DNA of 64,000 nucleotides from Candidatus Bathyarchaeota archaeon (GCA_963827165.1 CAWGZR010000004.1:96001-160000), one strand, 5' to 3'. Numbered from the stretch's first letter, positions 56,965 through 64,000 are shown. Translations and numbers: made by a program. The notes: generated by a model from the sequence alone, not told the origin.

Positions 56965-57264
56965 ATGGTTGAAACCAAAACTGTTGAGATGAAGGTTGAC
57001 GCATCAGAACTTAAAGGCGAAAAGCAAGACTTGATTTCGAAGCTCGCAGATTTCTTGAAGGAAAAAACAGGCGGCGAAGTATCTACAGCATCTGAGATGG
57101 TGACGATTAAGGGTCAAGGAGAAGCCCTGAGCAAGAAGTACATTCGAATAACGGTAAAGAAGTTCCTGCACAGACACGAGCTTACTGAGAGGTTTAGAGT
57201 AATCGGCGGCGAAGAAAACCTCCTGAAAGTAAAACAAAGAATAACGGGAGAAGAAGAGGACTAA
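56965..57264 (+). CDS. Ribosomal protein eL22-like
   Basis: LSKKYIRITVKKFLHRHELTERFRVI resembles the eL22 core; GAGGTGA SD. Confidence 0.7.
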   Translation: MVETKTVEMKVDASELKGEKQDLISKLADFLKEKTGGEVSTASEMVTIKGQGEALSKKYIRITVKKFLHRHELTERFRVIGGEENLLKVKQRITGEEED

Positions 57265-57705: not shown

Positions 57706-59901
57706 CTATTTGATTTTTAACTTCTTATAGATATAGGAAAATACTTTTTCGCCTTCCGCAACAGGTTCCTTGAACCTGACAGAAACCTCGGCTGCTGAAA
57801 GTGAAGCCCTGATTTCCCCTGCAACTCCTGATGCGGTAACAACTTTTGTTCCTACGAATTTGGAAGCAGCTTCCGAGGTGCTAAATAGACCCTTCACGGA
57901 ATATTCGTTGGCTTCTCTTTTTTGTTTTACAGTTCCTTCTTTGGTCTTTTTTGAGAAGAATTCTAATTTGCTGTTTGTTTCAGTAATTCTTCCGCCGCCG
58001 ATTATTCGAAATTCGCGGGCTTGGAGTCCAGGGTTCATCAAGAGGACTTGGTCGCCTCTTTCCGCCACGACTTGTTGTCTGAGTTCAATGTAAACTAAAC
58101 ATTTTTCAGAAGCCTTCACTGAGGTCTTCACAACGAACTTGCCTTCTTCCATGACCCCGGGCACGACGTTTCCCAGCACCTCATAAGAACCGACAAACAC
58201 GTCTACATCGCTATAGGGCGTCAACGTACGCAGATAGTATTTGTCCACTTCTAATTCGATTATTACACGGTGGGTAGAGCTTATGGAGCCTGGAGAAACT
58301 GCTACGTAACCCCTGTGAGCGTCATCAGGTTTTACGTCTTTGACGGCAACGCCCACCCTGTCTCCAGCGATAGCTTCCTCCTTGTCCTCACCGAATGACC
58401 GCAGTGAACGCACCTGACCTTTTTTGTCGATGGGTTTGATTTCAATGATATCTTTAACCTTTACTTTCCCGCGGTGTATCGTCCCTGTTAAAACAGTTCC
58501 CACTCCGACTATGGTGAATGCGTGGTCTATGGGCATCTTGAATGGACCATTCCATTGGCGAATAGGCGGACTGATAGACTCCTGTAGTGCACTTTTGAGT
58601 TCATCAATTCCTTTGCCCGTTAATCCTGAGACCTCCACGATCTTTGCGTTCTCATATGGAGTTCCTTTGAGAAGAACTGTGACTTTCTTCTTGACTTCCT
58701 CAATTCGCTCTGGAGAAGCCAAATCGACCTTGTTTATAGCAACTACAAGATTCTTTATTCCAACGTCTTTAATTATTGAGAAATGCTCCACGCTCTGAAC
58801 CTGGAGGCCGAGATCGGCGGCCACAACCAGCACAGCAGCATCAATTATGTTAGCACCCGCCACTGCATGCCTAACCAAACTGAAGTGTCCCGGCAAGTCA
58901 ACTAGAGTAGCGAGATAGGGACCTAACGTGAAAGCGGAGAAGCCCATATCCAATGTCATTCCCCGCCTGGCGGAGTCTGGTGCCTTATCCAGAGCTGCTG
59001 TCGAAGGTTTTTCAGTTAGCTGCCGGGCAAGCATTGTTTTGCCGTGGTCAACATGCCCGAACAGACCAACATGAACGGGAATGAGCCCCTTGCCCTCAGT
59101 CATAGCGTAACTTTTTGCGACTACATTGGCTTCTCTTAGGAATAATTCAACCGCGTCCACAGGCTTCGAACCGTCTTCAAGAGCCTTCTTCACCACTTCT
59201 TTTCTGATTCTTGAAAGAGAAATGCCCAAGTCCGGATTCTTGTATCGCGTCATAACCTCCATCATGGACTTTCTGGTTTCCCTTTCGATGCCTCTTGCTC
59301 TTAGTGACTTCTCGTTTTCCACAACTTTTCTGGGCTTGGACCTGATCGGTTGTTCAAGTCTCTTGAGAACTGCGGTAACAATGAGGCTTGCAATCTCTTC
59401 GATGCTTTGCTTACTTGGGTCGACAACAACAAGGGGAGTGTCCCATTTGTAATCGCCTTTTGGCGCGTCAAGTTTCTGATTGATTTCCTCAATGAGCGAT
59501 AATGGAATCGGCGATCCGCGTTCTTGATTCCATGCAATGGCTTGTTCAACGGGAGTGTCAACAAAAACTATGTCATAGTCAGAGCATAACCGTTTGGCAA
59601 TCTGCCTAAGCTCGCTCCTCATCGACTTGTAGTAGTTTAGGTCATCGCTAATTACGAGAAAACCATTCTCCAAACCGGTTGCAATAGCTTTCTCATAAAG
59701 AGTCTTGACAGATGCTTCCCGTTCAGGTTTGAATCCTTTGGAGCTATACGAGAGCATGTCCCGAAAATCGTCAGAGCTGACCACCATGGTTGAAACGTCA
59801 TGTTTGTCCTCGAGCAAGGAGGCGACGTTTTTGCAGATGGTTGTCTTTCCTGAAGAAGGCAATCCGCATAGTATAAGCAGGTAAGGAACGCTCTGTGACA
59901 C
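57706..59901 (-). CDS. selB: Fusion of O-phosphoseryl-tRNA(Sec) kinase (PSTK) and Sec-specific elongation factor SelB
   Basis: N-terminal GLPSSGKTT, DDLNYYKSMR, WD; C-terminal GHVDHGKT, RGMTLDMGF, DLPGH, NKVD, IDHAF..GVGTV.TG. Confidence 0.88.
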   Translation of the reverse strand: MSQSVPYLLILCGLPSSGKTTICKNVASLLEDKHDVSTMVVSSDDFRDMLSYSSKGFKPEREASVKTLYEKAIATGLENGFLVISDDLNYYKSMRSELRQIAKRLCSDYDIVFVDTPVEQAIAWNQERGSPIPLSLIEEINQKLDAPKGDYKWDTPLVVVDPSKQSIEEIASLIVTAVLKRLEQPIRSKPRKVVENEKSLRARGIERETRKSMMEVMTRYKNPDLGISLSRIRKEVVKKALEDGSKPVDAVELFLREANVVAKSYAMTEGKGLIPVHVGLFGHVDHGKTMLARQLTEKPSTAALDKAPDSARRGMTLDMGFSAFTLGPYLATLVDLPGHFSLVRHAVAGANIIDAAVLVVAADLGLQVQSVEHFSIIKDVGIKNLVVAINKVDLASPERIEEVKKKVTVLLKGTPYENAKIVEVSGLTGKGIDELKSALQESISPPIRQWNGPFKMPIDHAFTIVGVGTVLTGTIHRGKVKVKDIIEIKPIDKKGQVRSLRSFGEDKEEAIAGDRVGVAVKDVKPDDAHRGYVAVSPGSISSTHRVIIELEVDKYYLRTLTPYSDVDVFVGSYEVLGNVVPGVMEEGKFVVKTSVKASEKCLVYIELRQQVVAERGDQVLLMNPGLQAREFRIIGGGRITETNSKLEFFSKKTKEGTVKQKREANEYSVKGLFSTSEAASKFVGTKVVTASGVAGEIRASLSAAEVSVRFKEPVAEGEKVFSYIYKKLKIK

Positions 59902-60105
59902 CGTTTTCCCCTATTGTCTATCCCGTCTGGGTTTATAATGGTGTCGAACATTAGACTTTGATCATTAATTCCATAATATCATGTTGGATTTAACTCCAAG
60001 ATCCCCAAACTACCAATTTATATACGGGGAAAGACAACTCGGGAACTATACAGGAAAACCAGAAAATGTTCTCGAAGCAAGGAAACATTTCTTCTTATCT
60101 AAGGG

Positions 60106-61452
60106 TTGTTCTTGCCGACGGCACCAGAGGTATGTTTCATGTTACCGTTTGATAAGTTAAAAGATACTATCCCAAAGAGCATACTTGAGAGAGGCCTAAC
60201 AGTGTTAGGCACAGAGTCACAGCCGATAAAACTGCTTTTCGAGCAAAGAAGAATACCCCAAGAAGGCTGGAAAGACAGCCAAATCGAAGAATTCCTGAAT
60301 TTGCTGTCTACAATGGATTCGGACAAGGACAGTAAAGCAGTTTTTGTAGGCGAAAGAGAAGGCAGGGTTGCATCCCCAGCAGTTTCAAAGCTGGCAAGTG
60401 GATTTCACCACGGGATAGGAAGGTCAGGTGACTTGACTGAAGCCCAGCCTAAGGCGGCAGGTGGATCTCTCATGTATTATTTTGCTAACAAATTAGCAAA
60501 TGACGCCATGAAAAGGTTCGGACTCCCAAACATCAAAAAGACAGTGGTCTTTCCTGTGGCAACGGGAATGACGCTTGCTCTTGTCTTATGCGCCGCAAGA
60601 AACCACGCCATGGGAAGAGAGGTGGTTTACCCACAGATTGACCATAAGACCCCTTTGAAGGCAATTCATCTTGCCGGTCTTCAAGAGAAAATAGTTAAAG
60701 GAGAAGTCGATGGAGACGCAGTAAACGTTTCCACTGAAGAGATAGAAAAAGCAGTTAATGAAAATACAGCTGCGATCCTTTCAACAACCACCTTCTTTTC
60801 ACCCAGAGAACCAGATAAAATCAAAGATATTGCAAAGATCGCAGAGAAGAAAAAAGTCCCACATATTATAAACAACTCCTTCGGAGTGCAGAGCCGCGAG
60901 ATCATGAAACTCATAAGAGGCGCAGTCGACGCAGGACGTGTGGACGCAATAATCCAAAGCACCGATAAGAATTTCCTAACCCCAGTAGGAGGAGCAATAG
61001 TCGCTTCACCCAACGAAGAATTCTTAGACGAAATATCTGAAACCTATGCAGGGAGGGCAACAGCCGCTCCCGTAGTGCAATTCCTAGCAGCTGCACTGTC
61101 GATAGGATTAGAAGGCTACGAGAAACTGAGAACCCAGCAAGAAGAAAACAAGAAGTTCCTTGAATCATCCTTGAAAGAGGTTGCAGAAAGGCATTCGCAG
61201 CGTATTCTCAACGTTTACAATCCAATATCGGTGGCTATGACACTGGAGGGAAGAAACGCCAAAAAAATAGGTCAAGCCCTCTATACGGCAAGGGTTAACG
61301 GAGCAAGAGCTTTAGAAAAAAATGATTTCGGAGTATGCTGCCCAGAATACATCTCATCTTACATCAACTTCGACGCCAGCATAGGAATACAAAAAAACGA
61401 AATCACTCTAGCAACAGAGAGGTTAGACACCGTTTTGAAGACTGCGTCGTAG
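60106..61452 (+). CDS. spcS: O-phosphoseryl-tRNA(Sec) selenium transferase (SepSecS)
   Basis: MDS, GEREGR, HGIGRSGD, QPKAAG, QSTDKNF (PLP lysine), YAGRA. Confidence 0.93.
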   Translation: MFLPTAPEVCFMLPFDKLKDTIPKSILERGLTVLGTESQPIKLLFEQRRIPQEGWKDSQIEEFLNLLSTMDSDKDSKAVFVGEREGRVASPAVSKLASGFHHGIGRSGDLTEAQPKAAGGSLMYYFANKLANDAMKRFGLPNIKKTVVFPVATGMTLALVLCAARNHAMGREVVYPQIDHKTPLKAIHLAGLQEKIVKGEVDGDAVNVSTEEIEKAVNENTAAILSTTTFFSPREPDKIKDIAKIAEKKKVPHIINNSFGVQSREIMKLIRGAVDAGRVDAIIQSTDKNFLTPVGGAIVASPNEEFLDEISETYAGRATAAPVVQFLAAALSIGLEGYEKLRTQQEENKKFLESSLKEVAERHSQRILNVYNPISVAMTLEGRNAKKIGQALYTARVNGARALEKNDFGVCCPEYISSYINFDASIGIQKNEITLATERLDTVLKTAS

Positions 61453-61542
61453 TGGCGGCGTCCAAGGGGAATCGGACCCCGAGACCTTGCGGGCTCACCG
61501 GATTTGAAGTCCGATGCTAGGACCACCTAGCCGTGGGACGCC
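61453..61542 (-). tRNA. selC: tRNA-Sec(TCA)
   Basis: 90 nt; 9-position acceptor, 6-bp D-stem with 4-nt loop, CT-TCA-AA loop, long variable arm, 4-bp T-stem, G discriminator, CCA. Confidence 0.93.
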
Positions 61543-61725
61543 CTCAACGATGTTCGACAGTTGAATAATTTGTCTCGAAGCGCGATTTCTGTATTCACTC
61601 GGCAAAATAAACATATTCCGCCCTGAACACCCTAGACTAAGCTTGTGCAACATGCATTTTGACGTATCTTTCCGAGTTTTCATCTTGTTTTTGACAATGA
61701 CATATTCAAACGCCCATGTCTTTTA

Positions 61726-62244
61726 GTGAACTTGAAGCAATTTTCCATCATTTTATTAAGCTACAGCCACAATGTTCTTGCGGGACGGATTAGCTTGGCT
61801 ATTTTGTTTAAAGTCTCAAAATACGTTGTGGCTCTTTTAGTGGCAGGTGGGCTCGCGTGGCTTATTGCAGGATTGTTCTTTGGAGGATCGGTTGCGATCT
61901 CTTATTTTTCAAGTGGTTCTCTCGCGAACGCAGGCATCGCGACTCCTGGCTATCCAGCCGGTGCTGTGCGCCAACTTGCTTGGGACCAATTTTATATCAA
62001 CCTTTATTCCGCAGTAATCGGGTTGTTCGCAATCATCATTGGTCTCACCGCGTTCAGACAAGGGGAAAAATGGGCGTGGTATGCAATATTGGTCCTTGTC
62101 CTAAACGGGTTGATTACAAGCGTCTTTGATTATTTGAGCTGGGGAGGTTGGTACACTGTATTCGCTACTTCTTTACCGATGCTTCTTGCTTTGTTGTTTT
62201 CTGCCAAGAGCTTCTTCTCAGCTGCACGCCAAACGTTAAATTGA
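61726..62244 (+). CDS. Four-TM membrane protein
   Basis: AFRQGEKWAWY between TM helices; true start probably near 61795. Confidence 0.6.
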   Translation: MNLKQFSIILLSYSHNVLAGRISLAILFKVSKYVVALLVAGGLAWLIAGLFFGGSVAISYFSSGSLANAGIATPGYPAGAVRQLAWDQFYINLYSAVIGLFAIIIGLTAFRQGEKWAWYAILVLVLNGLITSVFDYLSWGGWYTVFATSLPMLLALLFSAKSFFSAARQTLN

Positions 62245-62355
62245 TTGACGGGTTAATTACGAATTTAGTGAGCATACTGTGTGCTCCCAGGCAAATAGCA
62301 AGCGCCAGCATCATAACCTCGCCTAACGGTAAAGGCTAAGGAACAAATTCTTTTG

Positions 62356-64000
62356 TTACTTCGCCGGTGCTTTGTCGGCGGGTTTAGCTGCAGGAGCTGA
62401 GGCTGCCGCTTTGCGTTTTAGCATGTTCTCTAAAGTTGGACGAAGCTTGGCGTTTTCGGCCAGTATCTTTTCTTTTCCCAGTTCCTTAAGTTGGCCGCTC
62501 ATTTCCTTGACTATATTGACAAATTTCTCTCCTTCAGCCGACGAAACATAGTCAACCCTTAGTCTTTCCGGGCTCAATCCAAGCTTCTGAAGCATTCCAC
62601 CCAAAGCATCCATGCGCACTTTCATCCTAACGTTTCCAGAGATATAGTGGCAGTCGCTGGGAAGATGACAAGCGGTAATCAACACGCCTCCGACTCCCAG
62701 CCTAAACGCTTCCATAACAAAGTCCCGATCTACCCTCCCAGTGCACATTACCCGTATCGCCCTTGTAGTAGGAGGGTATTCCAGCCGGCTCGTCCCCGCT
62801 CGGTCCGCGCCGGCATAACCTCACCAATTACACATAAACGTCAGTATCTTGTCCTCAGGATCCCTTTCCAGAGCAGCTCTGATTTGCGAGGTTATTTGCT
62901 CATCCGTAAAATGCATCTGAGTTATAGCATCTTGTGGGCATTCAGCAACGCATGTTCCGCACCCATGGCACTGGGCTGCATTAATCTGAGCTGGTTTCCC
63001 CTCAACTGCAGTTATGGCACCAAATGGACAGCTTTTCACGCACACCCCGCATCTTGCTTTTACGTTTCTGCATTTTGCGATGTCAACTATCGAGACTATC
63101 GGTTCTATCGTCCATTTGGGTTGAGAAAGGATCGTTGCCGCCCTTGCTGCCGCACCGCTTCCTTGGGCAACGCTATAGGGTATGTCTTTTGGTCCCTGGC
63201 AAGCACCCGCCAAGAATACTCCGTCCATAGGTGTGTCCATTGGTTTGAGTTTTGGGTGACTCTCCATGAAGAACCCGTCTGATCCTCTCGTTATATGGAG
63301 GATGCCAGCCAATTCTTCGGCTCCCTTGCTGGGTATAGCCGCCGTGCTTAGAACGGCCATCTCCACTTCGACTTCGATGGGCTGCCCCAGCGTCGAGTCC
63401 TCTGCTCGGATAACCAAGTTTTTGGTCTTTGGGTCTTCCAGTATTTGAGATGGCTTTCCCCTGACAAAGATAACGCCCATTTCACGGGCTCTTCGATAGA
63501 ATTCTTCATAACCTTTGGAGGGAGTTCGTATATCAATGTAGAAGATGTAGACTTCCACTTCATTATGGTAGTGTTCTTTCAGAAGGATGGCCTCTTTGAG
63601 CCCGTACATGCAACAGAAACCTGAACAGTATTCGTACTTGTTTACATCCCTTGAACCGACGCATTGAATTATAGCGACGCTCTTCGGTCTTTTTCCATCG
63701 GATGACCGGATTACATGTCCACTTGTTGGGCCGCCCGCTGTGATGAGTCTCTCAAACTCCAAAGCCGTAATTACGTTATCGTATTTTCCGTAGCCGTACC
63801 TTGCATCCTCATATGGTAGATAAATGTCACAGCCCGATGCTACTACGATTGCCCCAACTTCTAAGTCAACTTCTTCTGGCTTTTGGTTAAAGTTAATGGC
63901 TTCACGAGCGCCGCAGGCGTCCACGCATTTGAAGCACTCTATGCAGTAATCCATGTTAATCGAGTAGATGAGAGGCACTGCTTGATCGAACGGAATGGAG
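62356..64000 (-). CDS. hdrA: HdrA-MvhD fusion selenoprotein (5' end outside the window; Sec at TGA 62821-62823)
   Basis: HdrA motifs QCVGSR, CSGFCC, GACQGPKDI and ferredoxin motifs; reads CNW-TGA-GYAGAD...IRVMCTGRVD in frame into MvhD. Confidence 0.9.

Follow-up and report, generated by a model that had tools for sequence, protein, structure and literature searches.

The last 6.3 kb (positions 57,706 to 64,000) of a 64,000-nucleotide stretch of DNA from Candidatus Bathyarchaeota archaeon (GCA_963827165.1, CAWGZR010000004.1:96001-160000), the whole of which is referred to here as the window, contain a selenocysteine (Sec) locus, in which the genes of the Sec machinery lie beside HdrA-MvhD, a gene with in-frame UGA codons. 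This locus is very probably a functional Sec system of the fusion type already published for the Bathyarchaeia, serving an HdrA-MvhD protein with two Sec residues. Taken as a whole, the comparative sequence data are probably best explained by a working fusion-type system with local hairpin signals and an old inheritance, in a host that has lost its Cys-type paralogue. Clusters of this type are already known; the hairpins adjacent to the UGA codons within the coding sequence, together with the failure to find a canonical SECIS (Sec insertion sequence) within the 3' UTR (untranslated region), appear to be unreported in the literature searched. These features touch on the question of how the ribosomes of archaea distinguish a UGA for Sec from a stop codon.

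The Sec genes and their HdrA-MvhD client

A first-pass annotation of the window located PSTK-aSelB, SepSecS, tRNA-Sec, and HdrA-MvhD, the last with a TGA in frame, within 6.3 kb, and interpreted them as a genuine archaeal Sec locus, following the route from PSTK to SepSecS, beside its client selenoprotein. All four are present, and this interpretation is supported by the analysis. The features are as follows (positions prefixed with G000 refer to the contigs of the host genome):

57706-59901, minus strand: PSTK-aSelB fusion, 731 aa, encoded by one open reading frame (ORF), with Pfam and NCBIfam domains
60106-61452, plus strand: SepSecS (TIGR03531, 488.6 bits, cut-off 224.85; Pfam PF05889, E 4.6e-116)
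61453-61542, minus strand: tRNA-Sec, anticodon UCA (ARAGORN 61457-61540/61542; Rfam RF01852, 64.5 bits, gathering threshold 47)
62356-64000, minus strand: part of the HdrA-MvhD gene in the window (835 aa, Sec at residues 211 and 681; whole gene at G000:C4:158356-160863)
62821-62823, minus strand: in-frame TGA, the UGA of Sec681 (site 2), motif CNW-U-GYAGAD
G000:C4:160231-160233, 231 nt past the window end: the UGA of Sec211 (site 1), motif DCSI-U-IEGP
G000:C3:248992-249867: selD, Cys type (TIGR00476, 232.6 bits, cut-off 125)

The fusion combines a PSTK module (approximately residues 1-260) with a Sec-specific elongation factor (approximately residues 261-731). Pfam recognizes KTI12 at residues 8-219 (E 4.2e-35), GTP_EFTU at 277-443, and aSelB_III at 546-641, and the 471-aa aSelB part ends, after a GTPase domain, domain 2, and the aSelB domain III, with a short domain IV. 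The NCBIfam selB model (TIGR00475) scores 275 bits for a cut-off of 242.25, and PF21440 (aSelB_III) scores 30.3 bits for a cut-off of 19, while the translation has a legible P-loop (GLPSSGKT), as well as GHVDHGKT, DLPGH, and NKVD as GTPase motifs. PSTK and SelB share one unbroken frame in 23 of the other 35 loci in which both are present. These 23 are all the loci of the Bathyarchaeia clade except L024, which is frameshifted, together with one Archaeoglobaceae locus, while the 11 loci that are Asgard or unlabelled all lack the fusion.

The SepSecS gene is oriented divergently from the fusion gene, and its start is probably the ATG at 60139 (437 aa), given that its relatives are mostly 437 aa long. 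The lysine of the STDKNF motif (K288), which binds pyridoxal phosphate, is invariant in the 26-row alignment A1, and the nearest relatives, which are 81-91% identical, come from metagenome-assembled genomes (MAGs) of Bathyarchaeia. On the opposite strand, the 3' end of tRNA-Sec abuts the SepSecS stop codon. This tRNA has a 9/4 arrangement of the acceptor and T stems, the T stem being of 4 bp and the D stem of 6 bp, and the 8th pair of its acceptor stem is a C:U mismatch. The G73 and the CCA are encoded in the gene itself (61453-61456); the available text of a review states that archaeal tRNA-Sec genes do not encode the CCA.

The selD gene, which the first-pass annotation had not found in the window, with its possible lack raised as a concern, is indeed located elsewhere, on contig C3, and its N-terminal motif contains Cys rather than Sec. 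The host genome also has SepRS and SepCysS in adjacent positions (477 and 553 bits, both above their cut-offs), so it fits, in this respect, the setting of a proposal put forward in the available text of PMC8762117, in which the fusion shields Sep-tRNA(Sec) from SepCysS where SepRS and SepCysS coexist; a genome with the published system would also be expected to lack the adapter SepCysE.

The same source (Mukai et al. 2022, section 3.4.1 and the legend of Fig. 9) describes PSTK-aSelB fusions in "diverse Bathyarchaeota", with a typical Sec gene cluster, and the account is repeated in the available part of a review (PMC9499178), Mukai et al. 2017 (PMC5424206) being an earlier report. The novelty suggested by the first-pass annotation is thus refuted by the portion of PMC8762117 available, since the host belongs to a lineage already known to use Sec. 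The locus resembles the published system in its PSTK-aSelB protein encoded by one ORF, the clustering of the machinery and utilization genes, the mismatch at 6:67 of tRNA-Sec, and the coexistence of SepRS and SepCysS. The mismatch itself is different, however, as it is C:U in the host and not the U6:U67 that the same text reports for the tRNA-Sec of a wetland lineage. In the 13 rows of the clade, this pair is U:U in nine and C:U in four. The word SECIS is absent from the available text of PMC8762117, in which UGA hairpins, the history of Sec and Cys paralogues, and a within-genus census are also not described.

In the mechanism proposed here, SerRS would charge tRNA-Sec (UCA) with serine, the PSTK module of the fusion would phosphorylate that serine, and SepSecS would make Sec-tRNA(Sec) using selenophosphate from the unlinked Cys-type SelD. 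The aSelB module would then bring Sec-tRNA to the two UGA codons (Sec211 and Sec681) of HdrA-MvhD, a flavo-iron-sulfur protein, each of which would be marked locally by a stem-loop starting 6 nt downstream.

The window holds the 3' two-thirds of the HdrA-MvhD gene, with Sec211 and its hairpin lying beyond the window end. The score of the NCBIfam HdrA2 model, 474 bits, does not reach its cut-off of 1100, while the match to Pfam FlpD (E 1e-27) runs across the TGA. Standard ORF calling yields three ORFs for this gene, as would be the case if the TGA codons were true stops or assembly errors, and HdrA-MvhD were split or broken. This is extremely unlikely, however, given that the TGA is present at site 2 in all 14 related loci, and at site 1 in all 13 of those that reach it, and is kept in 40 metagenome contigs, with intact coding frames on either side, in addition to which the full Sec machinery lies next door, and contigs from two independent studies agree. 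The contigs from three DNA runs present no variant at the TGA of the window. In the Cys-type homologues, which are 68-72% identical, both sites are occupied by TGC or TGT in all six genes.

The case for a functional Sec system has some weaker points. The PSTK model TIGR03574 scores 141 bits, under its cut-off of 290.5, and the name PSTK thus rests on Pfam, the gene context, and the literature. One RNA library contains four 151-nt contigs (at least 99% identity) on SepSecS and HdrA, which provide a weak hint of expression, and this library may also contain DNA. The client gene found beside the machinery is the only selenoprotein gene detected in the host, in a search of the selenoproteome that is not exhaustive. 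The family searches of the genome recovered a TGA only in HdrA-MvhD (through FlpD), with no stops in the NiFe hydrogenase large subunits, and no match in the search for the molybdopterin family. A tblastn of the genome against itself for Cys/TGA pairs returned only off-frame artefacts, and missed HdrA, since the genome has no Cys paralogue, while the HdrA sites were not picked up by either of two screens for coding potential, both of which suffered from excessive noise.

Hairpins downstream of the UGA codons

Each of the UGA codons is followed by a hairpin that begins at nt +10, inside the coding sequence:

G000:C4:160185-160233: UGA of site 1 and hairpin 1 (6-nt spacer; 13-bp stem with one bulged A; 11-13-nt loop)
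62784-62814, minus strand: hairpin 2, at site 2 (6-nt spacer; 6-bp GC stem, 2-bp stem, tandem G-A internal loop, 2-bp stem, 5-nt loop)

Hairpin 1 has a folding energy of -26.9 kcal/mol (z -6.15), and none of 200 shuffled sequences is as stable, while hairpin 2 reaches -22.1 kcal/mol (z -3.16), with two of 200 shuffles being as stable. The apical loop of both starts approximately 19-21 nt past the UGA, and either starts with or contains a G.

The sequences of these regions are strongly conserved, with a column identity of 95% at site 1 (13 loci) and 98% at site 2 (14 loci), in a gene with an overall divergence of 0.163 per site. In a scan of 843 intervals of fourteen codons, the two lowest non-overlapping minima fall on the two UGA codons (0.022 and 0.059), and the region of hairpin 2 is the interval of lowest divergence in the gene. 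The synonymous difference is 0.023 in the lowest interval, which spans the UGA of site 2, and 0.315 over the gene as a whole; in the intervals that start three codons past the UGAs of sites 1 and 2, it is 0.084 and 0.082, respectively. Variable columns are restricted to third positions of the spacer, the outermost pair, the bulge, and the loops, and in hairpin 2, all of them are unpaired. In the same intervals of the Cys-type genes, which encode nearly identical peptides, the synonymous difference is 0.34-0.46, versus 0.467 gene-wide, and the sequence is unfolded at both sites (z -0.5 to +1.2; -0.5 to +0.05 at site 2 alone). The tandem Cys-type copy of L019, a Sec-using genome, also has no fold.

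The conservation past the UGAs might be attributed to other causes, either protein constraint combined with codon preference, or an element involved in mRNA stability or antisense. Both sites fall within motifs for cofactor binding that are highly conserved, and there are no compensatory changes in the stems, which is in keeping with this explanation. It is nevertheless a very improbable one, given the ordinary synonymous variation and lack of folding in Cys-type genes with almost the same peptides, and the fact that two unrelated sequences fold at an identical 6-nt offset from the UGA, with variation confined, apart from the outermost pair, to unpaired positions.

When the 5152 open in-frame TGA sites of the genome are ordered by fold energy, those of HdrA take the 5th and 14th places. 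Ten of the 12 sites that fold better are on contig C10, nine of them within its GC-rich first 26 kb. The translations at C10:369753, C9:326798, and C5:54521 are not protein-like, and this screen recovered no further selenoprotein. Hairpin 2 and its UGA are found in 15 of the 401 genomes sampled in the order, all of which belong to one family and four genera; within the host genus, all seven other genomes with hairpin 2 have SepSecS. In the metagenome pattern matches, hairpin 2 is kept in 40 of 43, and all 23 matches at site 1 fold alike.

The balance of this evidence leans, by a small measure, towards the hairpins, and not a canonical 3'-UTR SECIS, being the signals for recoding, or enhancers that are at least required for it. 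A number of observations weigh against such a role. The stems are nearly invariant and thus lack compensatory covariation, the metagenome contigs (n=43) having brought almost no new stem variation, so that the support for the hairpins comes from thermodynamics and from the suppression of synonymous change. A stem mismatch is present in two of the 12 distinct metagenome variants of site 1, and one of the 43 contigs has CNW-UGA followed by a Cys-type-like sequence with no hairpin. In five genomes of other fusion lineages (G136-G140), no TGA is found in the FlpD or HdrA matches. The 18 Pfam matches of the fusion include no SelB winged-helix domain, leaving the aSelB part with no bacterial-type mRNA-binding extension.

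In bacteria, the SECIS is a stem-loop that follows the UGA directly on its 3' side, within the coding sequence, and is bound by the C-terminal domain of SelB. The host hairpins are similar in their position inside the ORF, just after the UGA, and in the presence of one hairpin per UGA, and the position of the apical loop and its G presumably fit bSECISearch-type criteria. They differ from the bacterial SECIS in being associated with archaeal machinery (PSTK and SepSecS, with a 9/4 tRNA-Sec), in the lack of a winged-helix extension, and in having no Rfam SECIS match. A hairpin adjacent to the UGA is a position familiar in bacteria, and not in archaea. Hairpins in the coding region of archaeal Sec genes appear to be undescribed in the literature searched, although the figures and supplements of PMC8762117 may show more.

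One tentative possibility, which is given somewhat less than even weight, is that Sec is inserted in a bacterial manner by archaeal machinery, with each UGA being specified by its own hairpin, no UTR SECIS, and the fusion, or a partner, tethered by the hairpin. The reader of the hairpin might be the fused PSTK module or another factor, which is a matter for speculation. If this possibility is true, the fusion would provide the connection, long sought, of the Sec elongation factor of archaea to the signal in the mRNA, and the position of the signal, local or distal, would not be fixed by the domain of life. The combination of archaeal machinery and UGA-adjacent hairpins would also provide a compact test system, composed of a synthase, a tRNA, the fusion protein, and two RNA elements of 30-40 nt, and local signals would be easier to transplant for the engineered incorporation of Sec.

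The 3' flank and the search for a SECIS

The host hairpins also resemble the Sec redefinition element (SRE) of the eukaryotic SEPN1 gene, a conserved stem-loop in the coding sequence shortly past the UGA, which reportedly begins 6 nt after this codon. As the SRE stimulates read-through (PMC2248747, in the text available), and the archaeal SECIS elements described in the available text of PMC4989117 and PMC9499178 are all located in UTRs (the 3' UTR and, once, the 5' UTR), the hairpins might be SRE-like enhancers of efficiency, with Sec being specified by a non-canonical SECIS that was missed. This alternative is rather doubtful. The SRE works together with a 3'-UTR SECIS, whereas no such element was found at the host locus. 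The GAA_A and Loki-type descriptors have no match from -4.2 kb to +0.9 kb of the 3' end of the gene in 14 of the 15 loci, including that of the host, and the Rfam SECIS families have no match at E <= 10.

Two points leave room for a distal element in place of the hairpins. The descriptors are crude, and a non-canonical distal element could exist, while L030 has a Loki-like match of the AUGA/GA type in the spacer between its Sec-type and Cys-type genes. That spacer has been deleted in the host and most of its relatives, however, and both UGAs are still kept. The sole conserved sequence in the 3' flank, in turn, proved to be a pseudogene relic:

62270-62355, minus strand: decayed fragment of Cys-type MvhD coding sequence, directly after the HdrA-MvhD stop codon

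A 44-nt sequence just past the stop codon is kept in 10 loci, and this element (E1) was considered, together with a small hairpin (E2), as a candidate SECIS. A two-hairpin model of the flank pairs 88.6% of the cells, with weak covariation, and is equaled by 29 of 500 shuffles, while the folds of single sequences have neither a common shape nor stability (z +0.37 for the flank in the window). The covariance model of this region (R1) recovers only the flank in the host (40.7 bits), and, across the 120 genomes of the genus, has matches in 31. The candidate was rejected because the matches in Sec-less congeners lie inside Cys-type coding sequence, and all four of those inspected encode AREFVLEALRLGAG. 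The tblastn search with MvhD domains identifies the flank as a relic with stops and frameshifts, which is nearer to the Cys type, and shares nucleotides, in a different frame, with the end of the Sec-type gene that encodes the C-terminal tail. These alignments thus identify the conserved 3' sequence as a pseudogene relic of a Cys-type MvhD domain, and not a demonstrable SECIS. A look-alike at C3:268465, found by a loop-motif scan of the genome, was also rejected, as it is not behind a selenoprotein-like ORF.

The position of the relic after the stop codon suggests that the host once had a Cys-type paralogue, and lost it, and the HdrA-MvhD of the host would therefore depend on selenium. In the methanococci, the hydrogenases and Hdr are found as paired Sec and Cys isoforms. 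The tandem Sec-type and Cys-type copies of three Sec-using genomes (L019, L030, and L042) are similar, in that they are paralogues of one redox protein, although most species here keep a single form, unlike the methanococcal pairs, and the host has the Sec form and the relic of the Cys type. The clients and the presence of several Sec codons per transcript are also shared with the systems of the Methanococcales and Methanopyrus (GAA_A) and of the Asgard archaea (lokiSECIS), where, in the available text of Mariotti et al. 2016 (PMC4989117), HdrA and VhuD/MvhD are found among the selenoproteins. Those archaeal elements serve all the UGAs from a single UTR position, according to the same text, whereas each UGA of the host has an adjacent hairpin.

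The spacer of approximately 300 nt between the Sec-type and Cys-type HdrA-MvhD genes of L019, L030, and L042 contains a TATA-like box and a conserved segment able to form a stem. This segment lies in the 5' leader of the Cys-type gene, and in L030 it fits the SECIS descriptor of the Loki type. A switch between the isoforms that responds to selenium is one possible role.

Distribution of the cluster and its host genome

To the first-pass annotation, the tight cluster looked like a portable recoding cassette. A recent horizontal entry of a mobile cassette with its own client gene would fit the very compact layout, with machinery beside client, and the patchy distribution, given that SepSecS scores above the cut-off in 10 of the 120 species genomes of the genus (host counted), and hairpin 2 is restricted to four genera of one family. 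The syntenic site of the Sec-less congener G003 has the L22e-like gene, HdrA of the Cys type, and the polyferredoxin gene, with two ABC transporter genes in place of the Sec genes, and a search of this site for relics of Sec genes found nothing significant. This result favors the entry of a cassette and weighs against loss, for which the evidence comes from trees.

A number of other features make a cassette improbable. The GC content of the locus (0.42-0.51) is like that of the rest of the genome, and its neighbors are conserved, in that 13 of the 14 related loci have the polyferredoxin gene, four the L22e-like gene, and two each TrpRS and GT2, according to tblastn searches with nine proteins of the window region; the other ORFs of the flanks are unannotated, and mobility genes were not looked for. 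The polyferredoxin gene beside HdrA is also syntenic in Sec-less congeners. The SepSecS sequences labelled Bathyarchaeia form one clade of 27 rows (support of 98 in the Shimodaira-Hasegawa-like approximate likelihood ratio test, SH-aLRT), beside the Jord- and Freyarchaeia. In the tree of HdrA-MvhD, the 12 Sec-type and six Cys-type sequences are sister clades (SH-aLRT 94 and 100) with short branches, and a relic of the Cys type lies behind the Sec-type gene. Congeners without Sec have Cys-type genes that fall among the tandem Cys copies of the Sec-using genomes, which indicates that the duplication predates these species.

In the light of these trees and gene orders, the cluster is likely to be an old, vertically inherited trait of the family, which has been lost by most species together with the Sec-type HdrA, and not a recent cassette, although there may have been transfer among close relatives. 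As the machinery and its sole client adjoin, the trait can vanish in one step, and the pattern of Sec and Cys paralogues within one genus (10 of 120 species) would provide a clean natural case of the loss of a recoding trait. The selD gene is above its cut-off in 81 of the 120 genomes, including all ten with SepSecS, and is therefore not tied to Sec; the model of the bacterial-type selenouridine synthase (TIGR03167) has no match in the host genome. The cluster is not compact in every Sec-using congener, given that L028 (G087:C1) has SepSecS (845802-847067) and tRNA-Sec approximately 670 kb from the Sec-type HdrA (hairpin 2 at 1520402).

The host genome is assembled in 14 contigs (3.13 Mb, completeness 94.5%), and the host is an archaeon of the Bathyarchaeia from peat or soil, as the first-pass annotation had surmised. 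The nearest records carry the titles Candidatus Bathyarchaeota or Bathyarchaeia archaeon, except that three are bins with evidently wrong labels, and the flanking genes are syntenic with those of two of these records (TrpRS identity of 92-94%). The 14 loci of other genomes that carry the same cluster have SepSecS proteins with the range of identity given above. The concern that the region might be chimeric is laid to rest by short-read contigs from two independent studies, which bridge the junctions of the cluster (59591-62784 and 61239-63927), the first covering the end of PSTK, SepSecS, tRNA-Sec, the membrane ORF listed below, and HdrA, and the assembly is sound; runs X4 and X14 leave parts of the stretch uncovered.

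Clusters of the Bathyarchaeia type are also found in bins that bear the names Sulfotelmatobacter, Nanoarchaeia, Limnocylindrales, and Deferrimicrobium (L023, L025, L026, and L067), which suggests that public MAGs contain errors, either of binning or of labelling. In the host assembly, the first 28 kb or so of contig C10 (G000:C10:2000-28000) has a GC content of 0.54-0.65, in comparison with 0.43-0.47 elsewhere, and could be either a foreign island or a binning contaminant.

Two further genes adjoin or interrupt the cluster:

61726-62244, plus strand: 172-aa membrane ORF, between tRNA-Sec and HdrA-MvhD
56965-57264, plus strand: 99-aa small protein with a weak match to ribosomal L22e, adjoining the cluster

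The membrane ORF has no match in Pfam or NCBIfam and is confined to the host and two related loci, L022 and L095 (genome G123), which indicates that it is probably a passenger. The L22e-like gene is also kept beside the Cys-type HdrA in Sec-less congeners, and is therefore not specific to the Sec system.

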